From: Elusimicrobiota bacterium
GTDB taxonomy: Bacteria > Elusimicrobiota > Elusimicrobia > UBA1565 > JACRDR01
Assembly: GCA_041694815.1 (NCBI GenBank)
Contig: JBGFSC010000004.1
Coordinates: forward strand, 50,667 to 114,666
DNA: 64,000 bases
Direction: 5' to 3'
Made by a program: the position numbers and the translations under genes. Positions 9,381-34,930 of the stretch are shown here, piece by piece (positions within the stretch are counted from its first letter, which is position 1; each line of letters opens with the position of its first letter). The notes beneath the pieces were generated by a model. The model made no database searches and was not told the DNA's origin. It saw only the letters and a program-made list of their open reading frames with translations.

Positions 9381-9384
9381 AGGC

Positions 9385-11640
9385 GTGGCGGCCTTCAAAT
9401 ACACGAAAAAAACCTTGTCTCGCGTCTTCAGGGCGCTGAAAATACTGCTTCGGGCGGCGGCATTTTTACTGCTTTTGGCCGTCTTTCTGGTCGGCTCGGC
9501 GGTCCTGGCTTTGCGCTTTTTGGTTACACCGGAGCACGTGCGCGCGTTCGTGTCGACCGAGTTGCAGGAGATACTCCATCGCCCCGTCCAGATCGGCAGC
9601 ATTGACTTATTGGTTTTCCAAGGATTGCGCGTGCGCGGCCTGCGCGTATTGGAGTCGCCCGATTTTCCGGGCCAGGAGTTCATCACTAGCGAGGTGCTTC
9701 TCGCCAAATACCAATGGAGGGCGCTGCTCAACGGCCGCCTCGACTTCACCGAATTGCGCCTGGTAGCGCCGCGAATCCGCCTGCTACGCCGCGAGGACGG
9801 GCGATGGAATATCGAGGATATTTTTTCGGAGAAGGCCAGTGGCGGCGCTATGCCCCGGGTGCCCTTAAGCGCCCTCCCGGTTTCGCTGGTGGCCGACATG
9901 CTTTCCGTCGACCACGGCGACGTTGAGATCGACGACCGCAAGGAGGGGCAGCGCCGCCTCATCCGGGATTTCAACCTGGAGGTCCGTCGTTTCAACACTA
10001 AAGGACCCTTCGCGGCGAAATTTTCCTTCCAAACCTCCGGATCGCTCGGTGGGAAACCGATCCGTTTGGCGGCGGCGGCCACCGGCAGCCTTTCGCTGGC
10101 CGGCTTCAGGTGGGCGGAGGCCTTTTTCCAGGCTGAGAAAATACGCGCCGTCGTCGATGGCGAGAGGCTTTCGGGCTCGGGCAGCCTCAAGAACTTCACG
10201 GCCCCCCAAGTCGACTTGAGGGTGGAACTGCCCCGGATCGACTCGGCCACCCTCTCGCGTTACCGTTCAGTGCCTTCGGGAATCGCGATCCCGGCGTCGC
10301 AGCTGCGGCTGAAGGCGCGCATGCCGGCGCCGGGAGATTTCCGGGTCGACCTGCTTGAATGGTGGGCCGATCCGTTGAGGTTGAGAGCCAAGCTCGCTTA
10401 TTATCCCGTCAAGAACGGTCGGGCCTTCGAGCTCTCGGCCGGCGCGCCCGCCTTGTCGCTGCAGAGGATCTCGCAGCTATGGACAGGGCTGGAGCGCTAC
10501 CGTCTCGCCGGCAGCGCCGACGCGAACGTCATCCTTTATGGAGTACCGCAAGACCCCAATTCCCCCATCGGCATCAAGAAACTGATGATTCAAGCCCGAG
10601 GATTGAGCCTTTCCTTGCCGAAAGACAGGCGCTTCTCGGCGGCCAATATCCGCTTCACCGCGCAGAGGCGCTTCGCGGAGACCAGCCTGCAGGCCAGCGG
10701 CGCGGCCGTGAACGCTTACGGCAGCCGCTTTGCCGATATCAATGCCGGAGTGACATCCCGGCAGGAGAAAGTCGAGGTCGAACGCCTGGATTTCTCCTGG
10801 AATGGATCACACGTGAAGCTCAAAGGCAAGCTGGAGGGGCTGGCCTCTCCCAAGTCCGTCTACGTGGAAGGGTCGGTAGATAGGCTCGCCTTGAAGGAGG
10901 CCATCCGCGCGGTCTCGGGTATCGTCGAAGAGTTGCGTGGCGCGCCGGGAGCATCCCCCGCTCCAGCTCCCGCCGGGCCCAGGAAATGGTCGCAGGTTTT
11001 GAAGTACTCTATCCCCAAGACATTCCCGGCGATCTCGGGCCGCCTTCGGATCTCCGATCTCGTCTATCCCAATTTCAATACTTTCAATTTGGAACTCTCC
11101 TGGCAGCTCACGGGCATTTCGACGGGCTTGCGCAAGGCCAGCGGCAGCGTCCGGACGGCGTTCGGGCCGGGCCGAGTCAGCAATATCCCGGAGTTGCAGA
11201 ACGAGGGGAAGGTGCTGCGCGTCCTCTTCCTCCCTTTCGTGTTCATGCACCGTTTGAACAACTCCGTCGTCTTCAGCCTGCAGACGGCCTACCCCAAGAC
11301 CCTGGATTTCACGAGGCTTTATGGGGAATACGGCCTGCGGCAGGGGGTCGTCGACGTCCGGATGTTTTACGTCGACAGCCCGCAGCTGCTGGCGTTCGCC
11401 GACGGGAAGGTGGACTTCCCCCGTGAGAAGGTGGATATGCACGTTCTGACCCGGCTGACCTCCTCAAGGGGCCCTCTGCCCGAGGCGCTTTCCGACGAAA
11501 AGGGCCGGCCCTCGATCGGCTTCTTCGTGCGGCAGGACTTAAATAAGCCGACGGTGGAGGTGCAGTTCCGGAAAATGGGCGCCAACGCCATCGAGGACGC
11601 CCTGCAGCAGGCGCTTCGACGGACGGGGAAGTCTTTTTGA
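9385..11640 (+). CDS. AsmA-family protein
   Basis: N-terminal TM, RPVQIGSI, P.I.L.RREDGRWNI and a beta-rich C-terminus with G.VDF. Confidence 0.8.
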   Translation: MAAFKYTKKTLSRVFRALKILLRAAAFLLLLAVFLVGSAVLALRFLVTPEHVRAFVSTELQEILHRPVQIGSIDLLVFQGLRVRGLRVLESPDFPGQEFITSEVLLAKYQWRALLNGRLDFTELRLVAPRIRLLRREDGRWNIEDIFSEKASGGAMPRVPLSALPVSLVADMLSVDHGDVEIDDRKEGQRRLIRDFNLEVRRFNTKGPFAAKFSFQTSGSLGGKPIRLAAAATGSLSLAGFRWAEAFFQAEKIRAVVDGERLSGSGSLKNFTAPQVDLRVELPRIDSATLSRYRSVPSGIAIPASQLRLKARMPAPGDFRVDLLEWWADPLRLRAKLAYYPVKNGRAFELSAGAPALSLQRISQLWTGLERYRLAGSADANVILYGVPQDPNSPIGIKKLMIQARGLSLSLPKDRRFSAANIRFTAQRRFAETSLQASGAAVNAYGSRFADINAGVTSRQEKVEVERLDFSWNGSHVKLKGKLEGLASPKSVYVEGSVDRLALKEAIRAVSGIVEELRGAPGASPAPAPAGPRKWSQVLKYSIPKTFPAISGRLRISDLVYPNFNTFNLELSWQLTGISTGLRKASGSVRTAFGPGRVSNIPELQNEGKVLRVLFLPFVFMHRLNNSVVFSLQTAYPKTLDFTRLYGEYGLRQGVVDVRMFYVDSPQLLAFADGKVDFPREKVDMHVLTRLTSSRGPLPEALSDEKGRPSIGFFVRQDLNKPTVEVQFRKMGANAIEDALQQALRRTGKSF

Positions 11641-21493: not shown

Positions 21494-21973
21494 ATGCCGG
21501 CGATCTCGGAGCAATTCATGCAGCTGGCCATCGAGGCGGCCCGCAAGGGCTGTTCGGAGGGGGCGGGCGGCCCCTTCGGGGCCTGCATCGTCCACAAGGG
21601 GAAGGTGCTGTCGGTCGGCCACAACACGGTGCTCCGCGGGAAGAACCCGACCTTGCACGCGGAGATCTGCGCGATTAATTCGGCGACGCTTAAGCTCGGC
21701 ACGCACGAGCTATCCGGCTGCGATATCTATTCGACTACGGAGCCCTGCGTGATGTGCTTTGCGGCCATCAATTGGGCCAAGATCGGCCGCGTCTATTTCG
21801 GAACTAGGGTCAACGACGTCAAAAGGCTGGGCTTCAACGAGCTCACCATTTCCAACCGCACCCTCAAGCGGCTCGGCCGAAGCAACATCCGCCTCTATCC
21901 CGGGTTCCGCCGGAAGGAATGCCTCGAGCTGCTCGATTATTGGAAAGGCCTGCCGGGCCGCCGCACCTATTGA
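21494..21973 (+). CDS. guaD: Guanine deaminase (cytidine deaminase superfamily)
   Basis: GGPFGA, HAEI.AI and EPCVMC..AI.WA; first gene of the purine catabolism operon. Confidence 0.85.
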   Translation: MPAISEQFMQLAIEAARKGCSEGAGGPFGACIVHKGKVLSVGHNTVLRGKNPTLHAEICAINSATLKLGTHELSGCDIYSTTEPCVMCFAAINWAKIGRVYFGTRVNDVKRLGFNELTISNRTLKRLGRSNIRLYPGFRRKECLELLDYWKGLPGRRTY

Positions 21974-22785
21974 TGGCCTCCTCCCAGACTCTCGCCGACT
22001 GGGTGCGCGATCTCCCCAAGCCCGCCGTCGCCTGCACCTTGGTGGAGGTAGTCGGGAGCGCGCCGCAGTCGGTCGGCGCCAGGATGTGGGTCGGAGCCGA
22101 GCGCTTCCTGGGCACGCTGGGCGGGGGGGAATTCGAACGGCGGGTCCTCGATCACGCTAGGCGAATGCTGCGCGAGGGGCGCCAAGCCCCGGCGCTCATG
22201 GAATTCGTGCTCTGCAAGGAGATGGGGCAATGCTGCGGCGGCCGCGCCCGCGTGTTCTTCGAGCCGGTGCTTCCTAAGAAATCGGCGGTCCTCTTCGGCG
22301 CGGGCCATGTGGGCCGCGCCGTGGCCGAAGTGCTCGCGGGAACTCCCGCCGATGTCCTGCTCGTCGACGGACGGCCGGAATGGGCGAAGGCCGAAGACCT
22401 GCCCTCGGGGGTCGAATCGAGGCTCGAGGACCCGCTCGCCTACGCGCGCTCGAGGCGTTGGGGGGAGCGCGACGCCTGCTGCGTCTTCACCCACAGCCAC
22501 GAGCTCGATTTCCAGCTCGTTTCTTTTCTATTGCCCCAACCCCTCGGATTCCTGGGCTTGATTGGTTCCGAGCACAAGGCCGCGGTGTTCCGCGCCCGCT
22601 TGGGCTCCGGACCAGACGGGTCGGAGCTGCAGGCACTCTGGGACGAGAAGATGCATTGCCCCCTGGGCATCCCCTTGGACAGCAAGAATCCGAAGGTGAT
22701 CGCCGTCTCCATCGCCGCGGAATTGCTTCGGGAATGGGGCCTTCGCGAACCGGAAGCTCCCGAGCTCCATGGCGCCGCTCGCTAG
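21973..22785 (+). CDS. xdhC: Xanthine dehydrogenase accessory protein
   Basis: GSAP..VGARM, GTLGGG..E, MGQCCGG, FGAGHVG, THSHELD and GLIGS..K. Confidence 0.92.
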   Translation: MASSQTLADWVRDLPKPAVACTLVEVVGSAPQSVGARMWVGAERFLGTLGGGEFERRVLDHARRMLREGRQAPALMEFVLCKEMGQCCGGRARVFFEPVLPKKSAVLFGAGHVGRAVAEVLAGTPADVLLVDGRPEWAKAEDLPSGVESRLEDPLAYARSRRWGERDACCVFTHSHELDFQLVSFLLPQPLGFLGLIGSEHKAAVFRARLGSGPDGSELQALWDEKMHCPLGIPLDSKNPKVIAVSIAAELLREWGLREPEAPELHGAAR

Positions 22786-23350
22786 CCAGGTCTATCTCCT
22801 GGCGGCTGGGGAAGGCCGGCGGGCCGGCGGGCCGAAGGCCTGGCGGCTATTCGAAGGGCGCTCCTTGCTCGAGCGCCAAGTGGAATTCCTTTCCCGGCTT
22901 TTTCGCCCCGAGGACATCGCCGTGACCGTGCAGGAGGGATGGCAGGAGCGCGTCCGAAAAATCGACCCGGATATCCTCTGGATTCCGGAGGATCCGAAAC
23001 AGACAGCTTTGGGCGCGTTGCAGGCCCTGCTGCTCCGCTCGCCGATCCGGGATTGGGCCTTCCTCTATCACGTCGACATGCCCGTTTGGGAGAAGGGACT
23101 GTTCGAAGGGCTTTACAAGCATATCCCGGCGGCCCGGTCGCGGGGCGAGGAATCGATCGCGCCGAGCCATGGCGGGAGGAAAGGGCATCCGGTGCTGATA
23201 GCCGCCCCCCTGGCCCCGGGCATCGCCGCCCTGGACCCGTCCACAGGCAGGCTCGACCATTGGTTGAGGGAGCGGCGGCAATCCGTCGTCGAGCTGCCGT
23301 ATCCTTGCATCCATTCCAATTGGAACCATGCCAACCTTCGCGCTGCGTAG
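22769..23350 (+). CDS. MocA/MobA-like molybdenum cofactor nucleotidyltransferase
   Basis: LAAGEGRR.GGPKA, VDMP and GRKGHPV. Confidence 0.85.
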   Translation: MAPLASQVYLLAAGEGRRAGGPKAWRLFEGRSLLERQVEFLSRLFRPEDIAVTVQEGWQERVRKIDPDILWIPEDPKQTALGALQALLLRSPIRDWAFLYHVDMPVWEKGLFEGLYKHIPAARSRGEESIAPSHGGRKGHPVLIAAPLAPGIAALDPSTGRLDHWLRERRQSVVELPYPCIHSNWNHANLRAA

Positions 23351-24680
23351 CCGGCGCGTCGTGACGCCGCAGGGCCTGCGGCCGGCCACGGTGCTGGTCC
23401 GCGACGGCAAAATCGAGGCCGTCGAGCCGTTCGAGTCCTCCGCCGGAACTTTTGGACTTTTAGACGCCGCGGAGAAGCTGTTGATGCCGGCCCTGGTGGA
23501 TACCCATGTGCACGTCAACGAGCCGGGCCGCGCCGAATGGGAGGGCTTCGAAACCGCTACCCAGGCGGCGGCGGCCGGCGGCGTGTCGACGCTCGTCGAT
23601 ATGCCGCTCAACAGCGTCCCGGTCACGACCAGCCTCCGGGCACTCGAGGCGAAACGCCGCTCGGCGCAGGGCAAGTGCTGGGTCGATTGCGGGTTTTGGG
23701 GCGGAGTGGTGCCAGGCAACCGGGGCGAGCTCGAGGCGATGATCGACGCGGGGGTTTTCGGCTTCAAGGCCTTCCTGATCGATTCGGGAATCCCGGAATT
23801 CCCGGCGGTCGAGGAGCGCGATCTCAGGGAGGCGATGCCCGTGCTTGCGCGCCGCGGCGTGCCTCTGCTGGCGCACGCCGAGCTTTGCGGCCCGGCGCCC
23901 ATTCCCCGGAATTCCCGCCGCTATAAGGATTACCTCGATTCCAGGCCCAAGGCATGGGAGAACGAGGCGGTGCGGATGCTCTCGAGGCTTTGCCGCGAGA
24001 CCGGATGCCGCGTGCACGTCGTGCACCTTTCCTCGGCGCAGGCCCTCGAGTCGCTACGCGAGGCCAAGGCGGAGGGGCTGCCCATGAGCGCCGAGACCTG
24101 CCCGCATTACCTCTGCCTCTGCGCAGAGGATGTCGGCGACGGGCGCACGGAGTTCAAGTGCGCGCCGCCCATCCGGGAGGCGGCCAATCGCGAGCGGCTC
24201 TGGGAGGCGCTGGCGGACGGGACGATCGACTTTATCGTCTCCGATCATTCCCCCTGCCTCCCCGAGCTCAAGGAGCTCGAGTCGGGCGACTTCCAGCGGG
24301 CCTGGGGCGGGATCTCCTCGCTCCAGTGGGGATTGCCGGCGGTCTGGACGGAGGCCCGCTCGCGCGGGTTCTCCGCGGAGCGCATGGCGGCGTGGATGTC
24401 CGCCGCTCCGGCGGCATTCGCCGGGCTGCGCTCGAAGGGCGCCGTGGAGGTTGGCAAGGACGCCGACCTGGTCGTCTGGGACCCCGACGCGTCCTTCACG
24501 GCCGATCCCCGGGGCCTCAAGCACCGGCATCGAGTCAGCCCTTACGCGGGACGAAAGTTCTTCGGGGTGGTGGAGACGACGTTCCTGAGAGGCGAGAAAA
24601 TATATGAGCGAGGAAATCTTGCAGGGCCTTGCGGAGTCGCCCTCCGCCGCGAAAGCGCCGCCGTTCACCGATCTGCCTGA
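23328..24680 (+). CDS. allB: Allantoinase
   Basis: DTHVHVNEPGRAEWEGF, DMPLNS, ETCPHYL, FKCAPPIR and SDHSP. Confidence 0.95.
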   Translation: MPTFALRSRRVVTPQGLRPATVLVRDGKIEAVEPFESSAGTFGLLDAAEKLLMPALVDTHVHVNEPGRAEWEGFETATQAAAAGGVSTLVDMPLNSVPVTTSLRALEAKRRSAQGKCWVDCGFWGGVVPGNRGELEAMIDAGVFGFKAFLIDSGIPEFPAVEERDLREAMPVLARRGVPLLAHAELCGPAPIPRNSRRYKDYLDSRPKAWENEAVRMLSRLCRETGCRVHVVHLSSAQALESLREAKAEGLPMSAETCPHYLCLCAEDVGDGRTEFKCAPPIREAANRERLWEALADGTIDFIVSDHSPCLPELKELESGDFQRAWGGISSLQWGLPAVWTEARSRGFSAERMAAWMSAAPAAFAGLRSKGAVEVGKDADLVVWDPDASFTADPRGLKHRHRVSPYAGRKFFGVVETTFLRGEKIYERGNLAGPCGVALRRESAAVHRSA

Positions 24681-25611
24681 CCTGGCGTCTTCCCGCCTGG
24701 GGGCGCGAGTGCTGGCGGCCAACGACGACTTCTTCGCCCCTAAGGAAAACCTGATCAAGCCGGAGCCGGCCGTCTTCATCAAGGACAAATACACCAGCCG
24801 TGGGAAATGGATGGACGGCTGGGAGACGCGTCGGCGTCGCGCGCCGGGGCATGATTGGTGCCTGTTGCGGCTCGGCTGCCGCGGCACCTTGCGTGGAGTC
24901 GACGTCGACACGAGCCACTTCCTCGGCAACTATCCCGAGCACTGCTCGATAGAGGCCTGCGACCTTCCGGTGGGAGCGTCCTTGAGGAAGCTGGAGGCCG
25001 CCTCGTGGACCGAGATTCTTCCCAAGTCGCCCCTCAAGGGGGGGACCCATAATCTCTTGGCGATAGGCAGCGCTACGCCCTGTTCCTTCCTGCGCCTGCG
25101 CATCTACCCCGACGGCGGGGTCGCGCGCCTGCGGGCCTATGGGGAGGTGGTTCCGGATTTTTCCAAGTCCCGAGGGCTCATCGACCTGGCCTCGGTGCTC
25201 AACGGTGGCTGGGTCACCGCCAACAGCGATCGTTTCTTCGGCTCCCCCGGCAACATGCTCATGCCCGGCCGGGCCCGCAACATGGGCGACGGGTGGGAGA
25301 CCAAGCGGCGCCGCGGCCCGGGGCATGATTGGGCGATCGTGCGCCTAGGTGCCGCTGGCCGGATCCAGAAGGTCGAGCTCGATACCAACCACTTCAAGGG
25401 CAATTATCCCGACGCGTGTTCGCTGGAAGGCGGCGACGGTTCGAGCTGGACCGAGATCCTTCCAAGGACCAAGCTGAGGCCCCACACGCGGCATTTTTTC
25501 CAAAAGGAGATCACCCACTCCGGTCCCTTCAGCCAGGTGCGCATCAATATCTACCCCGACGGCGGGGTGAGCCGCCTGCGGATCTATGGACTCGTTGGGC
25601 CGGTTCAATAA
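24604..25611 (+). CDS. alc: Allantoicase
   Basis: Two repeats of DGWET.RRR.PGHDW and IYPDGGV.RLR.YG. Confidence 0.96.
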   Translation: MSEEILQGLAESPSAAKAPPFTDLPDLASSRLGARVLAANDDFFAPKENLIKPEPAVFIKDKYTSRGKWMDGWETRRRRAPGHDWCLLRLGCRGTLRGVDVDTSHFLGNYPEHCSIEACDLPVGASLRKLEAASWTEILPKSPLKGGTHNLLAIGSATPCSFLRLRIYPDGGVARLRAYGEVVPDFSKSRGLIDLASVLNGGWVTANSDRFFGSPGNMLMPGRARNMGDGWETKRRRGPGHDWAIVRLGAAGRIQKVELDTNHFKGNYPDACSLEGGDGSSWTEILPRTKLRPHTRHFFQKEITHSGPFSQVRINIYPDGGVSRLRIYGLVGPVQ

Positions 25612-26098
25612 GCTCGGCGAGGCCGAGGCGCGCGAGGCGCTCTTGCGCTGCTGCGGGTCACGCCGCTGGGTGGAGGCCATGCTGGCCGAGCGCCCCTTCG
25701 CCGACAGGGAAGCGCTCATCGAGCGCGCCGGCAAGGCTTTCCTGGCGTTGGACCGAACGGACCTGCTGGAGGCTTTCTCGCAACACCCCAAGATAGGCGA
25801 CTTGCGGAGCCTCAAGGCCAAGTTCGCGGGCACCAGGGCTTGGGCCAAGGACGAGCAGGCCGGTGCCGCGCAAGCCGATGAGAGGGTGCTCGCCAGCCTG
25901 GCCGAGGCCAACGAGGCCTATGAGAGGAAATTCGGCTACATCTTCATCATCTGCGCCACTGGCAGGAGCGCGGCCGAGATGCTGCGCGAGCTCCTGCGGC
26001 GGATGGGGCAGGATCCCGAGACCGAGCTGCAAACGGCGGCGCTCGAGCAGGCCAAGATCACGAGGCTTCGGCTGGAGAAGCTGCTCAAAGATTACTAG
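25586..26098 (+). CDS. uraD: OHCU decarboxylase
   Basis: CCGS..W, HPKIG, EQAG, YE.KFGYIFIICA.G and EQ.KI..LRL. Confidence 0.94.
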   Translation: MDSLGRFNKLGEAEAREALLRCCGSRRWVEAMLAERPFADREALIERAGKAFLALDRTDLLEAFSQHPKIGDLRSLKAKFAGTRAWAKDEQAGAAQADERVLASLAEANEAYERKFGYIFIICATGRSAAEMLRELLRRMGQDPETELQTAALEQAKITRLRLEKLLKDY

Positions 26099-26109
26099 AC
26101 TAGCACCTC

Positions 26110-26445
26110 ATGAGCCTTAGCACGCACGTGCTCGACACCGCGCGCGGCCGTCCCGCGAAGGGAGTGCCCGTCACGGTCGAGATTTTCACCGAGGCCGGGT
26201 TCCGCAAGCTCGCCGAGGGCCGTACGAATGCGGACGGGCGCATCCCGGCCCTGCTCGGCTCGGGAACGATGCGCAAAGGCCTCTACCGGATCGTGTTCAA
26301 TACCAGCGCCTATTTCCGCGCGGCGAAGGTTAAGAGTTTCTTCCCGATGGTGGCCGTCAACGTCTCGATCGCCGACCCGAAGAGCCACTATCATATCCCC
26401 TTGTTGCTGAGCCCTTTCGGCTATTCGACCTATCGTGGCAGCTAG
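26110..26445 (+). CDS. uraH: 5-hydroxyisourate hydrolase (transthyretin-like)
   Basis: LSTHVLDT..G.PA, TNADGR and HYHIPLLLSPFGYSTYRGS. Confidence 0.96.
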   Translation: MSLSTHVLDTARGRPAKGVPVTVEIFTEAGFRKLAEGRTNADGRIPALLGSGTMRKGLYRIVFNTSAYFRAAKVKSFFPMVAVNVSIADPKSHYHIPLLLSPFGYSTYRGS

Positions 26446-27091
26446 GGCAATCGCGCCCGTCCTCCTGCTTGCATGTTCGGCCCTCGTCGTCCGCGCCGAA
26501 GAGCCGGCGGGCAGAGCGCTTATGCGTGCCCACGGCTGCATGAGCTGCCATCGAATCGGGGAACGGGGGGGCAACGCGGGCCCCGATTTGAGCGTCGTGG
26601 GCCTGCGACATTCCCGCGAGTGGCTCGAGCGCTGGCTCAAGGACCCCCGCGCCTGGAAGCACGATACGGCGATGCCGAATTTCCGGCTCTCCGACGGCAG
26701 CCGTTCGGCCATCGTCGATTATCTCGCTTCCCTGCGAGGCAGGGACTACATAAAGGAAAGCGCCCATGGGGATCCGCTCGAGCGGGGCCGGCGGATTTAC
26801 CTTCGCGCCGGCTGCGTCGCCTGCCACGGCGCCGGGGGGCGCGGCGGGCATCCCAACAATAACGTTGCCGGAGGCCGCATCCCGGCCTTGGATCGGGTGG
26901 CCGAGGGCTTCTCTCCGGAGGAGCTGGAGCAGCGCATCCGCCGCGGCCGCAGGCCGGACAAGGAGGACCCGCGGGGACCAGACCCATTGGTCGCGATGCC
27001 CGCCTGGGGAGCCCTGCTGTCCGACGCCGAGATCAAGGACGTCTCGGCCTATGTATCGTCGCTCAATACTGGGGCGCGCCAAGACTGGTGA
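26435..27091 (+). CDS. Exported diheme c-type cytochrome
   Basis: Signal peptide; CMSCH...GPDL...MP and CVACH...MPAW heme domains. Confidence 0.88.
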   Translation: MAARAIAPVLLLACSALVVRAEEPAGRALMRAHGCMSCHRIGERGGNAGPDLSVVGLRHSREWLERWLKDPRAWKHDTAMPNFRLSDGSRSAIVDYLASLRGRDYIKESAHGDPLERGRRIYLRAGCVACHGAGGRGGHPNNNVAGGRIPALDRVAEGFSPEELEQRIRRGRRPDKEDPRGPDPLVAMPAWGALLSDAEIKDVSAYVSSLNTGARQDW

Positions 27092-27097
27092 GGTTCG

Positions 27098-27910
27098 ATG
27101 GATATCCAATGGAATGAGTGGCTCAACCTGCTCGCGCGCTGGATCCACGTGATCGCCGGGATCATGTGGATCGGGCAGACCTATCTGTTCAACTGGATGG
27201 AGCGGGCGTTGACGCCTCCCTCCCCGGCCAAGAAGAACATCTCGGGCGAGCTATGGATGGTGCACGGCGGGGGCTTTTATCTGGTCGAGAAGCAGAAATG
27301 GCCCGAAATTATGCCTCGGAGGCTGCATTGGTTCAAATGGGAGGCGGCCTCTACCTGGCTCAGCGGCGTGTTCCTTCTAGGCGTCGTCTATTGGAGCAGG
27401 CCCATCCTGTTGGAGTACGGCTCTTCGCTCAGCCAGGCCCAGGGCGTGGCCATTTCCGTCAGCGTTCTTATCGGCGGATGGGTTCTTTATAACTTGGTCT
27501 GGCGTTCGCCGCTGGGCAAAAGCGAGCTTCTAGGCGCGGCGGTATCCTGGGCGCTGGTGCTGGCCCTGGCCTGGGGGCTCGGACAGGTGTTGAGCGATCG
27601 TGCGGCCTACCTGCATATCGGCGCGATGTTCGGCACCATCATGGTGGCCAATGTCTGGATGGTGATCCTACCCAATCAGCGCAAGATGATTGAGATCAGC
27701 AAGGCCGGCGGCGTTGCCGACCCCAGCCTGTCCGCGCGCGCGGCGCGCTGCTCGAAGCACAACACCTACATGAGCGTTCCGTTGATATTCACGATGCTCA
27801 GTAATCATTTCCCAGAAGCCACATTCGGCCGGCCTTACGGCTGGCTGGTCCTGGGCGTGCTCGTGCTGCTGGGATGGTGCGCGGCGAAACTCATCCGAGA
27901 CCATCTCTAA
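27098..27910 (+). CDS. puuD: Urate hydroxylase PuuD membrane domain (no fused cytochrome c)
   Basis: RWIHVIAGIMWIG, LWMVHGGGFY, LHWFKWEA..TWLSG, GTIM.ANVW..I.PNQ and HN.Y..P..F.M.SNH; no CxxCH. Confidence 0.9.
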   Translation: MDIQWNEWLNLLARWIHVIAGIMWIGQTYLFNWMERALTPPSPAKKNISGELWMVHGGGFYLVEKQKWPEIMPRRLHWFKWEAASTWLSGVFLLGVVYWSRPILLEYGSSLSQAQGVAISVSVLIGGWVLYNLVWRSPLGKSELLGAAVSWALVLALAWGLGQVLSDRAAYLHIGAMFGTIMVANVWMVILPNQRKMIEISKAGGVADPSLSARAARCSKHNTYMSVPLIFTMLSNHFPEATFGRPYGWLVLGVLVLLGWCAAKLIRDHL

Positions 27911-28212
27911 AGCCCCATCGCGCGGCCGCCGGCCCTGTTATATTCTGCCACGATCGCCTCCCGGGCCGCCTGATAGGCCTCCGACGTGATGGGATGGACG
28001 ATGTCGAAGTACTCCTTCTCCCGTTCCCCGGTCCCCTTGCGTTGGGGAAATGAGATGAACGGCGCCTCCTTTCCTTGCACGATGCGGATATCCTTGATGA
28101 CGAAGGAGTCGGCGACCACGAGCTCCGCGAAGCCGAGCAGCGTGCTTTTGCCGCTAGCGGCTTGGTAGAGCCTTACTTTCGCTTGTACGGCGGGTGCGCT
28201 GTTTTTGGACAT
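27907..28212 (-). CDS. spoVG: SpoVG-family protein
   Basis: FVIKDIRIVQGK...FISFP.RK....YFDIVHPIT; AAAGGAGG SD. Confidence 0.9.
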   Translation of the reverse strand: MSKNSAPAVQAKVRLYQAASGKSTLLGFAELVVADSFVIKDIRIVQGKEAPFISFPQRKGTGEREKEYFDIVHPITSEAYQAAREAIVAEYNRAGGRAMGL

Positions 28213-28356
28213 GTTATCCCTCCTTTGACGGCACCCTTATATACGAACGAGCAAGCAAAAAGTTCCAAAAATTTTGATGAGTCAAACCGCATGCCATGAG
28301 TTATTGCGACTCGATTTCGAGAAAAAAGCTTAATTTTAAAGGGCTTAGTTCTTAGA

Positions 28357-28375
28357 TTTTCCGGTGACCGGAAAA
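28357..28375. other. Short palindrome TTTTCCGG-tga-CCGGAAAA (terminator-like or protein-binding site)
   Basis: Perfect 8-bp inverted repeat just past the archaemetzincin stop, in the AT-rich spoVG upstream region. Confidence 0.4.
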
Positions 28376-28380
28376 CCGGA

Positions 28381-29277
28381 TTAGGGTACGCCTTTTCGGA
28401 CCGAACAAAATCGAGCTTCCTTTATGTAACCGTGGGCGCGGTAAAACCGCTCCAGAGTCGCATAGCGGGTCGCCGGGTCCAAGCCGATATTGAGCCTTAA
28501 TTTCTGAAGATCGACGGGACACAAATGCATCGGCTGCCGATCGCTCTCCTCAAGCGAGTTGGATCCGTTCATGACGCATTGATAGGCGAGGCAATGGTCG
28601 ATCCCCAAGACGTGGCCCAACTCGTGGACGGCGGTCGTCAGAGTCCGTTGCTCCAAGGTCGCGCCCTTGGGCTGGCCGCGGTATCGCTCGCTCAGCCGCG
28701 CCAGTGAGAAGACGCCGGCGGCCAGGTCTTCCCGAGCCAGGCCGAATACGAAGTCGTCGTCGTCCGTATAGAGATCTTCAGTCAAGAAGCCCGCGACGGC
28801 GAAGGCGTCGGTCGGTGCATTTTTGTGAAGCTGCTTCAGCAAGGATTCTGCCTCGAATTGTCGGCGCTTGGGGCGCCAGGCTCGCCGGTCGGGCTCGATT
28901 CCCGGCAGGATTTTCGCCGGGGTCCCGAAGAAGGCTTCCAAGTATTCCCGAGCCGTTTCCATCAAGCGGGCGTGTTGCGCCTCGATCCCGCCGAGCGGCT
29001 GCACATAGATCGTTCGACGGGAAGGGCGCCACTTATTTTCCAAGCCTTTGAGGTATTCCTCGACCGACTGGGGCTTCTCCTCGGGATGATCCCAGCGCCA
29101 ATCGCCTTCCTGCGGAGGCCCGAGACGCTTGAAGCCGGTGTCGTCAAGCGGGGTCCTCGTCCGAAAGTTCGTGAGATCCTTCGAGACGCTCGCCACGTCT
29201 TCATTGAAAAACGCGCGGACCGCTAGCGGATGGACGACGGTGAGGAGCACCGATGCGGCGAGGATCGAGAAGCTCAT
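28381..29277 (-). CDS. Archaemetzincin (peptidase M54) family metalloprotease, secreted
   Basis: HELGHVLGIDHC...CVMNGS...LCP.D and FVFGLA; signal peptide after ATG 29277. Confidence 0.9.
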   Translation of the reverse strand: MSFSILAASVLLTVVHPLAVRAFFNEDVASVSKDLTNFRTRTPLDDTGFKRLGPPQEGDWRWDHPEEKPQSVEEYLKGLENKWRPSRRTIYVQPLGGIEAQHARLMETAREYLEAFFGTPAKILPGIEPDRRAWRPKRRQFEAESLLKQLHKNAPTDAFAVAGFLTEDLYTDDDDFVFGLAREDLAAGVFSLARLSERYRGQPKGATLEQRTLTTAVHELGHVLGIDHCLAYQCVMNGSNSLEESDRQPMHLCPVDLQKLRLNIGLDPATRYATLERFYRAHGYIKEARFCSVRKGVP

Positions 29278-29445: not shown

Positions 29446-30060
29446 CTAAAGATCATTCGCCTCCGAGAGTTCCTTATAACGCTCCGGATATTTTTTCTTG
29501 AAGGCGTCGACCAGTTTTTTTCGATGCGCTTTCCAGGTGGCGGCGTTTTTGCCGAGTTTGCGCTGGTTGGAGTCATAGACCAAAAACTCCCATATCGCCT
29601 TGCCCTCGGGCTTGTCGATTTTGCATCCCGGCTTCGACATCATACGTTTGACGTAACGAGACCAGACATCTGCTTCCGGTTGCCAAACGGTCGGGTCTTT
29701 GAATATTTCGGGACTCGATTTCTTCCATTCCGCAAGCGCCGCGCGTTTTAACGACATTCGTTTCTCAGGGTCATCGATGCGTTCATCATTGACGTAAGGT
29801 TCTACGAAGCGGGAGTTAAGCGGCCGAGCGGGCTGATGGCACTGGGAGCAGCGAGCCTTCAATAGCATGTACCCCTCTTTAAACCGGGAAGGATAGGCCT
29901 TCACCCTCGCATCGATCTCCTGTGGGCCAAGATCATTCGGATACGGATTCTGCGTGGCTTTTTCCTTTTCCAGCTCCGCGGCGCTCTTTTTCGTTTCCAC
30001 TCGAGGGCCTGAAATACAGATAGAAGGTAGTAAGAAGCAGGCAAGGATCAGTTTTTTCAT
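29446..30060 (-). CDS. Exported monoheme c-type cytochrome (lower GC)
   Basis: Signal peptide; CSQCH; W.RYVKRMM.KPG..I distal-Met region resembling c551-type domains. Confidence 0.8.
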   Translation of the reverse strand: MKKLILACFLLPSICISGPRVETKKSAAELEKEKATQNPYPNDLGPQEIDARVKAYPSRFKEGYMLLKARCSQCHQPARPLNSRFVEPYVNDERIDDPEKRMSLKRAALAEWKKSSPEIFKDPTVWQPEADVWSRYVKRMMSKPGCKIDKPEGKAIWEFLVYDSNQRKLGKNAATWKAHRKKLVDAFKKKYPERYKELSEANDL

Positions 30061-31409
30061 TTTTTGCGATTCTCCAATATTTTAAGGAATGACCGTGACT
30101 GGAATTCCGCCTGCGTCAACCCGGTAGCCTGGGCCTCCTCGAGCGTGATGGCCCCGCAGTTGAGCCCGCGCAGGAAGAAATTGAGCAGTCCTTGCCCCGT
30201 GGCCGCGTCGTCGAAAACGTCGCCGACCAAGGTCGCCTGGGCCGCCTTCTCGACGAAGTTCTTGAGCCGCGCCGAGGCGGCGTCCAAGCCCTTGAGGAAG
30301 AAATAGAAAACCGCCGCGTAGCGGGTCGGAAGCTGCGCGGGGTGCAGGTCCCAGCCCTCGTAAAAGCCGCCGACGAGCGAATGCTGGATATGGTCGAAGT
30401 GGAGCTTCCAGGCCCGGTGCACCGCCGCGCGATTCTCGTCGATCTGCCCGCGCGAGAGGGCCTCGCCCTGAGAGGCGCGGTGGATCGGCACCGGCATCAC
30501 GTTGGTGGCGCCGTCGGAGAGCTGTATGCCCCGCTGGGCCAGCGAGACCTGCATGGCGTGCTTGGCGAAATCGCAGGCCGGGTGGTCCATGGCCTGGTGG
30601 TTCGCCGTGATGTTGCAAAGCGCCGTGTAATCGTAGGTGCCGAAATGGGCGGCGACGCAGCGGCCTTGCAACGCGTCGACGAGCGAAGGCAATACCAACT
30701 CCCCCTTCTCGCCGAATATGGACTGGGGCGTTTCGACCATGAGCTCGACCTTCAAGGCGCCGTTTTTTAAGCGCAGCCTCCGCTCGAGCGCGCCTAGGGC
30801 CTTGGCCAGGGCGGCGGGTTGGGCGGGCGAGGTGATCTTGGGCAGGGTGACGACGAATCGCGGGGGCAGCGACTTCTTGCCGCAAGACAGGAGGGTGGTC
30901 AAGAAGATGTCGAGCGTGCGCAGCGAGCGAGCGCGCAGGGGCTCGGAGAGAGGCTTCATGCGCATGCCGATGAAGGGAGGCAGCGTCCCTTGGGCTAGAC
31001 CCTCGGCGAGCTCCACGGCGGCTTGGACCGCGTGGGCGTCCTCCTCGGCGTCCGGGCGGTTGCCGTATCCGTCCTCGAAATCGATGCGGAAATCCTCCAC
31101 GGGCTCGCTCTGGAGCTTGGCCAGGACCCGGGCGTATACCGTTTCGGCCAGCCGCCCCTCATCGATGCCGAGAGCCGATGCGAGTTCCCGGAAGGTGGGC
31201 GCGTATTCGGACAAGGACTTGAGCGCGAGCGCGCCCATCTTGCCGGCGCTGTCTCGCTTGAACAGATGCGCCCCGCCGTAGACGACGTGCACGGGCTGGC
31301 GCTCGCCCGAGTCCCCGGGATGCGAGCGCGCGAAGGCCGCGTTGCCGCGCTTAAGGGCCGAGAAAACGGGGTTTAGGTCCGCGGGTTTTAGAGAGCTTTT
31401 CGGCGTCAT
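30057..31409 (-). CDS. HpcH/HpaI aldolase-citrate lyase (CitE/malate synthase-like, DUF6986-type) enzyme
   Basis: RQPVHVVYGGAH, EDFRIDFEDGYG, LPK, MVETP, HFGTYDY, LSDGATN and GWDLHP.QL. Confidence 0.8.
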   Translation of the reverse strand: MTPKSSLKPADLNPVFSALKRGNAAFARSHPGDSGERQPVHVVYGGAHLFKRDSAGKMGALALKSLSEYAPTFRELASALGIDEGRLAETVYARVLAKLQSEPVEDFRIDFEDGYGNRPDAEEDAHAVQAAVELAEGLAQGTLPPFIGMRMKPLSEPLRARSLRTLDIFLTTLLSCGKKSLPPRFVVTLPKITSPAQPAALAKALGALERRLRLKNGALKVELMVETPQSIFGEKGELVLPSLVDALQGRCVAAHFGTYDYTALCNITANHQAMDHPACDFAKHAMQVSLAQRGIQLSDGATNVMPVPIHRASQGEALSRGQIDENRAAVHRAWKLHFDHIQHSLVGGFYEGWDLHPAQLPTRYAAVFYFFLKGLDAASARLKNFVEKAAQATLVGDVFDDAATGQGLLNFFLRGLNCGAITLEEAQATGLTQAEFQSRSFLKILENRKK

Positions 31410-32269
31410 CGTTGGTTCTCCAGGAATTCTCTGAGGAGATTGCGGGACACGGCCAGGCGGTATTCGGCCGTCGAGCGCACGTCGTCGATCGGAGAAACGT
31501 CGCGCTCGAGCAGCGTGCAGGCGTGATCGATCGCGGGGCCATCGAGCCTTTTCCCGCGGAGGAAGGACTCGGCGGACTTAAGCCTCCGCACGGTCGGGGC
31601 CATGCTGCCTAAGGCGAAACGCAGCTCCTCGACCGCGCCGCCGGAGGAAAGCCACAGGAGCCCCGCCGCCACGGTCTTAGAAAGGGCCTGAGCGGCCCGG
31701 GTGCCGACCTTGCGGAAATAGGAGCGTTTCGGGCGGGTCCGCGGGAAAGGAAGTTCGACGGCCGTGATGAGCTCGCCGGGGCGCAGCGTGGTCTTCTTGA
31801 CCCCGGCGAATATGTCCGTAAACGGCACCGCGCGCCGGCCTTCCCGGGAGGCGACATGTACGATCGCCTCGTAGACGGCCAGCGGGGGGAAGGTGTCGCC
31901 GGCTGGCGAGGCGTTGGCGATGTTTCCGCCGAGCGTGCCCCGGTTTTGGATCGCCAAGGCGCCGATGAGGGCGCAGGCCTTGGGCAGCAGGGGAAAGTCC
32001 CGCCGGATCGCGGGGTGGCGCTGGAGCGTCGAATGCGTCGCCAAGGCCCCCACGATCACCCCGGCTTTGGTCGCGTGGATCGATCCCCACTCCGCGACGC
32101 GCGAGAGATCGAGGATCGTCCTATGGTTTTGGAGGCCGGCGTTCCAGGCGACCATAAAATCGGTGCCTCCGGCCAATGGCAGGGCCTCCGGGCGTTCGGC
32201 CAGCCGCTCGAGCGCCTCCCGGGCCGAGCGGGGCCGGATCCAGGCCATGCTCTCCGCGATCCCCCTCAT
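31406..32269 (-). CDS. Xanthine dehydrogenase family FAD-binding subunit
   Basis: PLAGGTD, IQNRGTLGGNIANASPAGD and PIDDVRSTAEYR; ATGA-coupled to the FeS subunit. Confidence 0.92.
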   Translation of the reverse strand: MRGIAESMAWIRPRSAREALERLAERPEALPLAGGTDFMVAWNAGLQNHRTILDLSRVAEWGSIHATKAGVIVGALATHSTLQRHPAIRRDFPLLPKACALIGALAIQNRGTLGGNIANASPAGDTFPPLAVYEAIVHVASREGRRAVPFTDIFAGVKKTTLRPGELITAVELPFPRTRPKRSYFRKVGTRAAQALSKTVAAGLLWLSSGGAVEELRFALGSMAPTVRRLKSAESFLRGKRLDGPAIDHACTLLERDVSPIDDVRSTAEYRLAVSRNLLREFLENQR

Positions 32270-32736
32270 GCCCGCGACTTCCTTTTGCGGGCGGCCGCGA
32301 TCACGGAGTCGACGATCTGTTGGTATCCCGTGCAGCGGCAAAGATTGCCGGCCAAGGCGTTGCGCACGGCGGATGGGTCCTTGGATCCGCCGGAGCCGAG
32401 CCAATAGGAGGCGGTCATCAGCATGCCGGGAGTGCAGATGCCGCATTGCGCGCCCCCCGATTCCAGGAAGCACTGCTGCAAGGCGTTGAGGCGCTCGCCA
32501 GCGGCCAGGGATTCGACCGTTTTCACCGCTCGGCCATCGAGCTGGCCGACGGGGATGAGGCAGCTGTTCACCGGTTCGCCGTCGAGCAGCACGGTGCAGG
32601 CCCCGCACTCGCCCTCGCCGCAGCCTTCCTTCGTGCCGGTCAGTTGGAAATCCTCCCGAAGCACGTCGATGAGGCGTTTGAACGGAGGGCCGCCGAAAAT
32701 CCGCCGCTTACCGTTGACCGTTATTCTTATGGGCAT
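32266..32736 (-). CDS. Xanthine dehydrogenase family (2Fe-2S) subunit
   Basis: GTKEGCGEGECGACTV, QCGICTPG and GNLCRCTGY. Confidence 0.95.
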   Translation of the reverse strand: MPIRITVNGKRRIFGGPPFKRLIDVLREDFQLTGTKEGCGEGECGACTVLLDGEPVNSCLIPVGQLDGRAVKTVESLAAGERLNALQQCFLESGGAQCGICTPGMLMTASYWLGSGGSKDPSAVRNALAGNLCRCTGYQQIVDSVIAAARKRKSRA

Positions 32737-34930
32737 GGAGCAGTTTTTCGGGCAGTAAGGGAAGCTCGGCTATCCAGGCGCCCGTCGCGTGGCATACGGC
32801 GGCGGCGATGGCGGGGCCGGGAACGTCCATCGGTAGCTCGCCGACGCCCTTGGCGCCGAAGGGTCCTCCCGAAAATGGTTTTTCCACCACCGAGACGTCC
32901 ATCGGCGGGGTGTCGAGCGCGGTGGGGATGATGTAATTGGTGAGCTGTGGGTTGGCCATCGCCCCCGCGCGCATGACCACGTTCTCGTACAAGGCGTAAC
33001 CCACCGCTTGGGCCGTGCCCCCGGCGATCTGGCCTTTCGCCAGCAGGGGATTGACGGCCTTGCCGATGTCTTGGGCGGTCGTGATCTTCCTTACGCGCAC
33101 CTCGTAGGTCGTCTTGTCCACCTCGAGGTCGGCGACGGCGGCTGCGTAGCTATAGACGCCGTAGGCGTCTCCCCGATAGTTTTGATCGTCCCAGCGGATA
33201 TCCGGAGGATTCTGGTATTGGGCTTCGAAAATCTTCTCCTTGCCGGCGCCGCAGATTTTGCGGGCCGCCGCCCGCAGTGCCGCGGGGCTGCCCGGCGCCT
33301 TAGGGTGGGCTCCGCGCAGTTCCTTTCGCAGCTCGAGGGCGGCGCGGCGCAGCAGGCCCCCGACGACCATGCAGGTGCGGCTGGCCACCGTCGGTCCGCT
33401 GTTGGGGACCCGGCTCGTGTCCGGGGTTTCGACCCGGACCCGCTCGAGCGGCACGCCGACGCTGTCGGCGACGATCTGGGCGAACAGGGTGTTGGTGCCC
33501 TGGCCGATTTCGGTGGAGGCCGCCAAGACTCGTATCTCGCCCTCGCGGGTCAGCGAGAGGGCCGCGCGGCTGGCTAGGTGCAGCTCCCCGCTGCCGGTGA
33601 ATCCCGCGCCGTGATGCACCATCGCCAGGCCGATCCCCTTCCAAACCGGCTTCCTCGCGTCGCGGTTGAAACGCTCGTATTCCTTGCGCTTGCGGGCGTA
33701 GCCGCTGCGCGCCACGCATCGCTCCAGGCTCTCGAGCGCCCCGACGCTTTCCTTGAGGCGCTGGCCGGTGGCGGTGGTCGAGCCCTCGCGGAAGGCGTTG
33801 AGCCGGCGCAGCCTCAAGGAGTCCAATCCCGTCTCGCGGGCGATCTTCTCCCAATGGAGCTCGGCGGCGAATAGGGTTTGCGGCGCGCCGAAGCCGCGGA
33901 AGGCGCCGTTGGGCGGGGTATGCGTGGCCAGGGCCTTCGAGCGCACGCGCACGTTCGGGCACTCGTAGGGGCCGGTCGCGTGCAGCGTGCCGCGGGAGAG
34001 CACGACGGGTGTCAGGGTGACGTAGGCTCCGCCGTCCATGAGCACTTCGATGTCCTGCGCGAGCAGCCTCCCCTCGCGGCTGAGCCCCGTCCGGTGGCGG
34101 ACGATCGCGGGGTGGCGTTTGGTGGTGGCGGCCATATCCTCGGCGCGGTCGTAGACGATCTTGACAGGCCGGCCGGCCTTGCGCGAGAGCACGGCCGCGT
34201 GTCCCCCGATCATGTTAGGGTATTCTTCCTTGCCGCCAAAGCCGCCGCCGGTCGCCGTCTGCACGACCCGGAGCTTCTCATCGGGCAATTCGAAGAGGTG
34301 CTTGAGGGCCTTGTGGACGTAGTAGGGGCATTGAAGCGAGCCCATCACATGCAGGGCGCCGTCCTCCCACCAGGCGGCCATTGCGTTGTTCTCGATGTAG
34401 GCGTGCTCTTGATGGGGCACGCGGTACTCGCCCTCGACGATAAAACGGGACTCGGCCAATCCCTTCTCGACGTCACCCTTCTCGATAAGGTATTTCTTGA
34501 ATACGTTGTCGGTCGAATAGATGGCGTGCTTGACCGCCAGCGAGTCCTCGAGGGTGAGCACGCAGTCAAGCTCCTCGTACTCGACGCGCACGTGGGAGAG
34601 CGCCTCGTAGGCCAGCTCCCGCCGCGGGTGGGCGATCAAGGCGATGGGCTCGAAGGCGTGGCGGACGACGTCGTCTGCCAGGAGGGGCTGGTCGAGCTCG
34701 ATCAAGGCGACTTGATTGCGCGGTACGTCCTTGGCCGTGGCGACGACGAACTCCGACCAGGGGAAGCGGGGATCGAAGACGATCTCGCGGATGCGGGCGT
34801 GCGGCACGCTCGAACGCAGGGTGGCGCCGTAGAGGCAGCCGGGGATTTCGTAGTCGTCGAGGTACTTGGCCTCGCCGCGCAGCTTCTCCTTCCCTTCGTA
34901 GCGCAGCTCGCTTTTTCCGACGGAAGGCAT
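32708..34930 (-). CDS. Xanthine dehydrogenase family molybdopterin-binding subunit
   Basis: QEHAYIE, GGGFGGKE, AFRGFG.PQ, EIGQG, TVASR and GAKGVGE. Confidence 0.95.
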   Translation of the reverse strand: MPSVGKSELRYEGKEKLRGEAKYLDDYEIPGCLYGATLRSSVPHARIREIVFDPRFPWSEFVVATAKDVPRNQVALIELDQPLLADDVVRHAFEPIALIAHPRRELAYEALSHVRVEYEELDCVLTLEDSLAVKHAIYSTDNVFKKYLIEKGDVEKGLAESRFIVEGEYRVPHQEHAYIENNAMAAWWEDGALHVMGSLQCPYYVHKALKHLFELPDEKLRVVQTATGGGFGGKEEYPNMIGGHAAVLSRKAGRPVKIVYDRAEDMAATTKRHPAIVRHRTGLSREGRLLAQDIEVLMDGGAYVTLTPVVLSRGTLHATGPYECPNVRVRSKALATHTPPNGAFRGFGAPQTLFAAELHWEKIARETGLDSLRLRRLNAFREGSTTATGQRLKESVGALESLERCVARSGYARKRKEYERFNRDARKPVWKGIGLAMVHHGAGFTGSGELHLASRAALSLTREGEIRVLAASTEIGQGTNTLFAQIVADSVGVPLERVRVETPDTSRVPNSGPTVASRTCMVVGGLLRRAALELRKELRGAHPKAPGSPAALRAAARKICGAGKEKIFEAQYQNPPDIRWDDQNYRGDAYGVYSYAAAVADLEVDKTTYEVRVRKITTAQDIGKAVNPLLAKGQIAGGTAQAVGYALYENVVMRAGAMANPQLTNYIIPTALDTPPMDVSVVEKPFSGGPFGAKGVGELPMDVPGPAIAAAVCHATGAWIAELPLLPEKLLHAHKNNGQR

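Follow-up and report, generated by a model that had tools for sequence, protein, structure and literature searches.

A seven-helix PuuD core encoded beside a separate dihaem cytochrome c, a candidate two-subunit membrane urate oxidase in one order of Elusimicrobiota

We analysed a stretch of 64,000 nucleotides (nt), hereafter the window, from an Elusimicrobiota bacterium (GenBank assembly GCA_041694815.1, contig JBGFSC010000004.1, positions 50,667 to 114,666 of the forward strand), in which the urate oxidase position of a purine catabolic operon holds two adjacent genes, one for a putatively exported dihaem cytochrome c and one for a short form of the membrane protein PuuD. With moderate confidence, we read the two genes as encoding a two-subunit membrane urate oxidase or dehydrogenase that would deliver electrons via the dihaem cytochrome toward respiration, the cytochrome having been recruited within the order to which the window belongs. 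In the parts of Doniselli 2015 (PMC4562309) on which we draw, PuuD is described as the main urate oxidase of Gram-negative bacteria, never purified and of unknown mechanism, cofactors and electron acceptor.

On the plus strand, the operon runs allB-alc-uraD-uraH-cytochrome-PuuD. The cytochrome gene (26435..27091, 218 amino acids [aa]) starts with a GTG codon 11 nt ahead of the stop of uraH (26110..26445), the two open reading frames (ORFs) overlapping, and is separated by 6 nt from PuuD (27098..27910, 270 aa), whose ATG lies at 27098. The original prediction, made from the letters alone, had placed here a 270-aa PuuD membrane protein free of CxxCH motifs and, 6 nt upstream, an exported cytochrome with two such motifs overlapping the uraH stop; both descriptions agree with our ORF coordinates and Pfam matches. 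It had also noted that the window holds no uricase, HpxO or HpyO gene, and this extends to the whole genome (2.77 Mb, 97.8% complete), in which we found no uricase (PF01014) and no HpxO- or HpyO-like protein, the matches to FAD_binding_3 (PF01494) being only weak and partial.

PF06181 (Urate_ox_N, the DUF989 core) is the sole Pfam match of the window's PuuD (298.3 bits against a cut-off of 26.9, E-value [E] 8.8e-89) and covers profile positions 4-262 of 295; fused PuuDs, which carry a C-terminal cytochrome domain, reach position 292-293. Neither the 270-aa protein nor the three forward frames of 27701-28900 contain a CxxCH motif, and all of the homologs listed, at least 120, are 265-275 aa long with PF06181 only. 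A haem domain hidden by a frameshift, a possibility raised in the original prediction, is excluded, because spoVG on the minus strand (27907..28212; Pfam SpoVG, E 1.1e-18), which marks the 3' end of the operon, overlaps the PuuD stop and no CxxCH occurs in the forward frames downstream.

An AlphaFold2 model of PuuD, built on a 92-sequence alignment (predicted local distance difference test [pLDDT] 91.8, predicted template modelling score [pTM] 0.88), comprises seven long helices, with a beta-hairpin within the first of its long loops. Comparison of the protein tails agrees with this: the short form stops at the end of helix VII, the point beyond which fused forms add a hydrophobic helix VIII and then, via a linker, the CxxCH domain. 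The full membrane domain initially attributed to the window's protein therefore has to be corrected to seven helices, not eight. Sixteen lysine and arginine residues lie on the predicted cytoplasmic segments and three on the predicted periplasmic ones, a distribution that fits a topology with the N-terminus outside and the C-terminus inside (N-out, C-in); the same N-out orientation of helices I-VII was derived in the part of Doniselli 2015 (PMC4562309) that deals with topology.

Across 92 short, dihaem-linked and fused PuuDs, 23 alignment columns are invariant, including R14, H17, H56, E82, R168, N222 and H237, and the invariant residues sit in helices I, II, V and VI and in cytoplasmic loops. 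Because these columns are common to all three architectures, the PuuD core is intact in each. The window's protein has all 23 of them in common with the PuuDs of canonical purine operons, to which it is 45-72% identical, and the dihaem-linked short PuuD is presumed to be the urate-oxidising subunit.

Structural searches with the PuuD model returned no convincing relative in the PDB. Foldseek found nothing at E ≤ 0.001 (best 0.42), and the best VIA-align score against 48,161 chains, Z 8.3, lies within the stated helical-bundle background. Haem b proteins occur among the generic four-helix bundles matched in the latter search (a designed two-haem bundle at Z 8.2, b6f at 7.9, Dcytb at 7.4, b561 and NOX2 at 6.9 each) and none stood out, which leaves the fold search neutral on a haem b site. 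A kinship of DUF989 with HemJ/UPF0093, for which a similar His-containing first helix had been the lead, found no support: hhalign, comparing the PuuD alignment with seven HemJ-like sequences of the window's order, gave a probability of 0.4% on shallow alignments, and a four-helix DUF989 paralog described below matched PF03653 marginally (E 0.93).

The partner protein carries two CxxCH motifs (C35-H39 and C127-H131), and Pfam Cytochrom_C matches it in two stretches (E 2.4e-23). Residues C35, C38, H39 and M80-P81 in its first half and C127, C130, H131 and M188-P189 in its second are invariant in 12 orthologs, in which the conserved methionines M80 and M188 would serve as axial haem ligands. The N-terminus forms a hydrophobic leader (MAARAIAPVLLLACSALVVRAEE) and, judged by eye, all 12 orthologs have such a leader. 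Several also show a lipobox-like L-x-[AG]-C, again by eye (LLAC in the window, LAGC in locus L029 and LAAC in L014), so the cytochrome is possibly exported and held by a lipid anchor. It belongs to no named equivalog, since all 15 of its NCBIfam matches fall below their cut-offs (the best being SoxX with 55.7 bits against 61 and ccoP with 54.5 against 179.95), and a PDB profile search gave partial matches at E 3e-13 to 1e-3.

Genomes of the window's order carry two to four full-length copies of this dihaem family each. In a tree of 58 copies, all of the PuuD-linked ones (12/12) form one clade (Shimodaira-Hasegawa-like approximate likelihood ratio test [SH-aLRT] support 98), and the other copies fall in separate groups. 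Two relatives, G022 (L133:3718-7008 and 8980-10804) and G015 (L150:3960-7178), have dihaem paralogs that immediately follow a UbiA-family gene (probably a haem O synthase) and immediately precede COX2-COX1. Because paralogs adjoin COX2-COX1, the family looks like an aerobic-chain electron carrier serving the terminal oxidase, and the PuuD-linked cytochrome looks like a specialised sibling within this oxidase-associated family. A third full-length dihaem paralog of the window's genome (G000) lies at C28:223-936, 222 nt from the contig end; its orthologs in G001, G003, G004 and G005, of the same family, form a clade of their own.

We surveyed the gene neighbourhoods of PuuD in 14 further loci from the 41 genomes of the window's order (the window's genome included) and in 80 loci from GTDB species genomes. 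ORFs were called by script and flanking ORFs labelled against the window's own proteins; single-linkage clustering was dropped as too noisy, antisense ORFs in GC-rich DNA clustering together. The loci fall into three architectures. Group E, comprising the window's order and the Elusimicrobiota metagenome-assembled genomes (MAGs) L029 and L031, has the dihaem cytochrome directly upstream of a short PuuD in 13 of 17 genomes; counted within the 41 genomes of the order alone, the pair is present in 11 of the 15 that bear PuuD. Group S comprises 47 loci with a short PuuD of ~270 aa from Acidobacteriota (many of them Pyrinomonadaceae), Myxococcota, Bacteroidota, Ignavibacteriota, Verrucomicrobiota, Fidelibacterota and others. 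Group F comprises 29 loci, mostly from Pseudomonadota, with a fused PuuD of ~400 aa and one CxxCH (two in L082).

Where the pair occurs, the gap between the two genes ranges from -7 to +13 nt, and the surroundings vary: a glycogen debranching enzyme with a ClpP-like gene (L005, L029), an ABC transporter (L031) or response regulators (L014), with uraD-uraH directly before the pair only in the window and in L012. A pair that stays constant while its flanks change has the pattern of a functional two-gene cassette. As far as sampled, the combination of a seven-helix PuuD with a dedicated dihaem cytochrome is confined to one order, and full-length PuuD itself is sparse in the phylum, occurring in 5 of the 251 genomes sampled, four of which belong to the window's order (G000 among them) and one, G244, to another. 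The conservation of a dihaem partner beside short PuuD that the original prediction had anticipated thus holds for 13 of 17 genomes of the order and fails outside it, where none of 47 loci has one; short PuuD is therefore not generally dependent on a neighbouring cytochrome.

Modelling of the pair, which had been proposed as a check, supports physical association. PuuD, the mature cytochrome and two haems were predicted together in three runs alongside three controls, giving ipSAE interface scores of 0.75, 0.72 and 0.75 for the pair and 0.00 for every control, with contact agreement of at least 98% between runs and partner pLDDT of at least 86. The pass mark is reached by 116 of 157 solved complexes and by 2 of 215 mismatched pairs, a calibration that is only rough here because custom alignments were used and the haem ligand was included. 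Since the PDB holds no PuuD-like structure, recall of an already solved complex cannot explain the pass.

The predicted interface is formed on the PuuD side by residues 101-110, 166-169 and 236-246, that is, by the three loops predicted to be periplasmic, and on the cytochrome side by residues 31-51 and 79 (the haem 1 CxxCH and its methionine) and 123-134 (the haem 2 CxxCH). It contains the invariant R168 and abuts the invariant H237 of PuuD, and haem 1 is docked on the periplasmic loops. No constraint enforced this geometry, which agrees with the periplasmic destination of c-type cytochromes. The model thus supports, and does not show, that PuuD and the dihaem cytochrome bind each other.

From these elements we infer urate activity, a direction of electron flow and a final acceptor as follows. 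The seven-helix PuuD, with its N-terminus in the periplasm and its C-terminus in the cytoplasm, would oxidise urate to 5-hydroxyisourate at its conserved cytoplasmic loops, and UraH and then UraD would process the product in the cytoplasm. Two electrons would cross the membrane domain, on any cofactor that it may hold, to the conserved cluster R14, H17, R168 and H237 at the periplasmic face, enter haem 1 of the exported cytochrome docked on PuuD's three periplasmic loops, and pass from haem 1 to haem 2 and on to a terminal haem-copper oxidase. The conversion of urate to 5-hydroxyisourate is a two-electron step, and the two haems could hold both electrons. The cytochrome would be a dedicated paralog from the oxidase-associated family, recruited to PuuD within the order, rather than a piece split from the fused proteobacterial enzyme. 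Two COX1-type haem-copper oxidase genes and one cytochrome c assembly gene are present in the window's genome. Together with the 13/17 adjacency amid varied flanks, the single clade of linked cytochromes and the complex model that passes, they support the two-component unit of the original prediction.

Several observations weigh against a cytochrome-dependent enzyme. Within the window's order, 4 of the 15 genomes with PuuD (G004, G008, G036 and G037) have no adjacent cytochrome, and their dihaem copies fall in clades other than the PuuD-linked one. In group S, an ORF similar to the dihaem cytochrome is found in 0 of 47 loci, and in 43 of them the flanks, up to 4 kb long, contain no CxxCH ORF that reaches 80 aa. 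Purine genes nevertheless flank 41 of these 47 PuuDs, and uraH or uraD lies directly upstream in 26. Searches of five whole group-S genomes found no full cytochrome ortholog (best match 156 bits in one, below 70 in the others). G244, of the same class and another order, likewise has its PuuD without an adjacent cytochrome. There the short PuuD (L158:1474-2271, minus strand, 265 aa) lies between an M16-like peptidase-sized ORF and a histidine kinase, with neither cytochrome nor purine genes in the 3.8 kb examined. Because the 47 cytochrome-less short PuuDs sit mostly in purine operons, the core may work without a dedicated partner.

These data speak for a self-sufficient core, one in which PuuD gives its electrons to O2, quinone or a general periplasmic carrier and the cytochrome is an optional accessory that might, for example, speed up delivery to the oxidase or scavenge superoxide, the latter an idea discussed in a passage of Doniselli 2015 (PMC4562309). 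The catalytic-looking invariant residues, identical across the three architectures, suit such a core as well. What it leaves unaccounted for is the tight conservation of the pair despite changing flanks, the dedicated clade formed by the linked cytochromes, and the confident and topologically sensible interface predicted over invariant PuuD residues; moreover, fused forms always have a haem domain, and a Sinorhizobium ccmC mutant is reported to lose purine use (in the portion of PMC4562309 that covers it). We regard an optional cytochrome as unlikely, though as the most serious competitor to the two-subunit enzyme.

A broader proposal, which we put forward tentatively and with less confidence than the two-subunit reading itself, would accommodate all three architectures. 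The seven-helix DUF989 core may be a self-contained transmembrane redox module, possibly with a cofactor of its own (e.g. haem b at H17 and H237, with R14 and R168 at the periplasmic side), that oxidises cytoplasmic urate and has independently recruited interchangeable periplasmic carriers: a fused monohaem c in Proteobacteria, a separate dihaem c in the window's order, and none dedicated in many phyla. If so, urate would be a respiratory electron donor, the enzyme would not be defined by cytochrome c, and the pairing of a four-helix DUF989 protein and a dihaem cytochrome would make up a further, unknown enzyme of like design.

The two-subunit urate enzyme also has to be weighed against a cassette that acts as a membrane oxidoreductase on some other substrate, its operon position in the window being incidental. 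Most cassettes of the relatives lie outside purine operons, which counts against the urate reading: any purine gene in the flanks is found in 6 of 17 loci of the order, the relatives' flanks being only 1.5 kb long. A four-helix DUF989 paralog with its own dihaem cytochrome clearly has a different role. Against this stand the position of the pair directly after uraD-uraH in the window and L012, with the cytochrome start overlapping the uraH stop in the window; the fact that UraH and UraD occur in a genome in which no other urate oxidase was found; and the identity to canonical-operon PuuDs with every invariant column kept. Because most relatives' cassettes are seen outside purine loci, albeit in such short flanks, we keep a non-urate substrate in consideration as an improbable alternative.

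The four-helix paralog lies outside the window in the same genome (G000:C29:50930-51556, 208 aa, with a partial match to PF06181). Four nt after it, at C29:51561-52241, follows a dihaem paralog of 226 aa with a lipobox-like LLAAAC, and a rhodanese-domain gene comes next, the three genes together spanning C29:50930-52621 (L002:1216-2907). The order DUF989 then cytochrome recurs in the window's genome and seven relatives (8 of 41 genomes), and the cytochromes downstream of four-helix DUF989 cluster together in the dihaem family tree. This second pair is probably an uncharacterised membrane oxidoreductase of the same plan, and its existence counts in favour of the dihaem cytochrome as a genuine partner of PuuD.

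A third alternative is fission, in which the C-terminal cytochrome domain would have left a fused PuuD as a gene of its own and, by duplication, given rise to a dihaem protein. The original prediction had spoken of a split PuuD whose dihaem partner replaces the fused haem, and it is this part that is not supported. Both architectures do join DUF989 to a c-type cytochrome, and one fused PuuD with two CxxCH exists (L082:3749-5539, from a delta-proteobacterial MAG), the first region of its C-terminal extension being Haem_bd-like and the second Cytochrom_C. A profile of the 29 fused C-terminal domains, however, finds the dihaem proteins with E 0.005-0.3, no more strongly than it finds an unrelated cytochrome c encoded in the same genome (0.075), and the dihaem profile reaches only L082 among the fused forms (E 0.0017). 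The nearest kin of the dihaem protein are instead the paralogs in oxidase operons and beside four-helix DUF989. Helix VIII is missing from the short form, although a break at the linker would have kept it, and the cytochrome gene lies upstream of PuuD, not downstream.

Phylogeny of the membrane domain is less decisive. An unconstrained maximum-likelihood tree of 92 domains groups the fused forms in one clade (SH-aLRT 99); a second clade (99) unites the dihaem-linked forms and two cytochrome-less relatives, and cytochrome-less forms separate the two clades. Joining the fused and dihaem-linked clades costs 28.9 log-likelihood units, and the approximately unbiased (AU) test, its groups named after the tree had been seen, does not reject the joined tree (p-AU 0.098), so the PuuD tree alone is no proof of two recruitments and to that extent tolerates fission. 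It is mainly because of domain kinship, helix VIII and gene order that we conclude that the pair is probably not a split of the fused enzyme; on these grounds we rejected fission as a candidate and rate it the most remote of the alternatives.

The remainder of the purine catabolic cluster lies on both sides of the pair. On the plus strand it starts with a deaminase of cytidine/guanine type (21494..21973; Pfam dCMP_cyt_deam_1, E 5.6e-28), followed by two genes for molybdenum cofactor insertion into xanthine dehydrogenase, an xdhC-like gene (21919-22785; Pfam XdhC_C and XdhC_CoxI) and a MobA-like nucleotidyltransferase (22769-23350; Pfam NTP_transf_3). Next come allB, for an allantoinase-type amidohydrolase (23328..24680; Pfam Amidohydro_1, E 3.3e-27, with a weak ALN_composite match), alc, for allantoicase (24604..25611; Pfam Allantoicase, E 1.4e-97), and uraD, for OHCU decarboxylase (25586..26098; Pfam OHCU_decarbox, E 4.7e-45, with NCBIfam TIGR03180 above its cut-off). 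The longest allantoicase ORF runs 77 nt into the end of the allantoinase ORF (24604-24680), and the true allantoicase start is probably further downstream. The uraH product, a 5-hydroxyisourate hydrolase (Pfam Transthyretin, E 2.7e-37; NCBIfam TIGR02962, 137.8 bits against a cut-off of 87.45), begins MSLSTHVLD, without a hydrophobic leader, and is taken as cytoplasmic because it has no signal peptide.

Beyond spoVG, on the minus strand, genes for the FAD, 2Fe-2S and molybdopterin subunits of xanthine dehydrogenase, the urate supplier, occupy 31406..34930 (Pfam FAD_binding_5, CO_deh_flav_C, Fer2_2, MoCoBD_1, MoCoBD_2 and Ald_Xan_dh_C). They adjoin a DUF6986 gene (30057..31409, minus strand; Pfam DUF6986, E 2.1e-179), a homolog of which occurs in 24 of the 47 cytochrome-less PuuD loci from other phyla (counted from the flank-label listing); DUF6986 is an uncharacterised enzyme whose gene keeps company with those for urate and allantoin breakdown. 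Between it and an M54-type peptidase gene, at 29446-30060 on the minus strand, lies a gene whose 204-aa product has one CxxCH and a leader resembling that of a signal peptide or lipoprotein; it has no Pfam match and a weak SorB-like NCBIfam match below the cut-off (E 1.7e-4). Possibly this is a further c-type cytochrome, linked to the xanthine dehydrogenase/DUF6986 unit.

Doniselli 2015 is the sole primary description of PuuD that our literature search found, and the search turned up neither a cytochrome-less full-length PuuD nor a separate cytochrome partner, though the supplements of PMC4562309 (Figs S6-S13, Table S1) may show more diversity. As far as this search goes, the cytochrome-PuuD gene pair is new to print; the enzyme family itself is known. 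That paper describes the cytochrome domain as an invariable feature of full-length DUF989 proteins, and groups E and S contradict this. Some NCBI records name cytochrome-less short PuuD "urate hydroxylase PuuD". With the core occurring by itself, beside a separately encoded dihaem cytochrome, or in fusion with a monohaem domain, the three natural architectures amount to a natural experiment that asks if the cytochrome is indispensable. For laboratory work the form with separate subunits has advantages as well: a soluble or lipid-anchored cytochrome can be produced and titrated alone, urate-dependent haem reduction offers a direct assay, and the predicted interface names residues for mutation. 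The data would further tie urate catabolism of a little-studied phylum, Elusimicrobiota, to aerobic respiration.

Among known systems, the fused PuuD (COG3748, as described in the relevant parts of PMC4562309) is the obvious point of comparison. The window's system has in common with it the PF06181 domain, the uraH/uraD context, a genome without Uox, HpxO or HpyO, and the predicted N-out orientation. It differs in that the fused form is N-out and C-out with eight helices, whereas the window's PuuD has seven, is predicted C-in, and lacks the C-terminal monohaem domain with its CxxCH and distal methionine; the haem partner is instead a separate, putatively exported dihaem protein, encoded upstream and without specific kinship to the fused domain. 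The cytochrome-less short PuuDs of Acidobacteriota, Myxococcota, Bacteroidota and others are closer in build, with the same length of ~270 aa, the same seven-helix end point and the same position after uraH; their loci have no nearby cytochrome, whereas the window's clade gained or kept a dihaem partner.

Four-helix "short DUF989" proteins, which retain helices I, II, V and VI only and occur in a different gene context, are noted in the part of Doniselli 2015 (PMC4562309) concerned with them. They belong to the same core fold family (PF06181, partial) and, in the window's genome and seven relatives, are paired with a dihaem cytochrome of the same family as the window's; there, however, the cytochrome lies downstream, a rhodanese gene follows, and the context is not purine catabolism.

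The cytochrome resembles cytochrome c4, CcoP of cbb3 oxidase and the cytochrome subunits of sugar and alcohol dehydrogenases in its pair of class I haem domains, in each of which CxxCH is accompanied by a distal Met-Pro, and its PDB profile matches include the cytochrome subunit of fructose dehydrogenase (E 1.5e-11), CcoP (6.9e-10) and cytochrome c4 (2.4e-8). It stands apart from all of them as a member of a lineage-specific family that reaches no NCBIfam cut-off, and its role would parallel that of the dehydrogenase cytochrome subunits, namely to take up electrons from a membrane-associated dehydrogenase.

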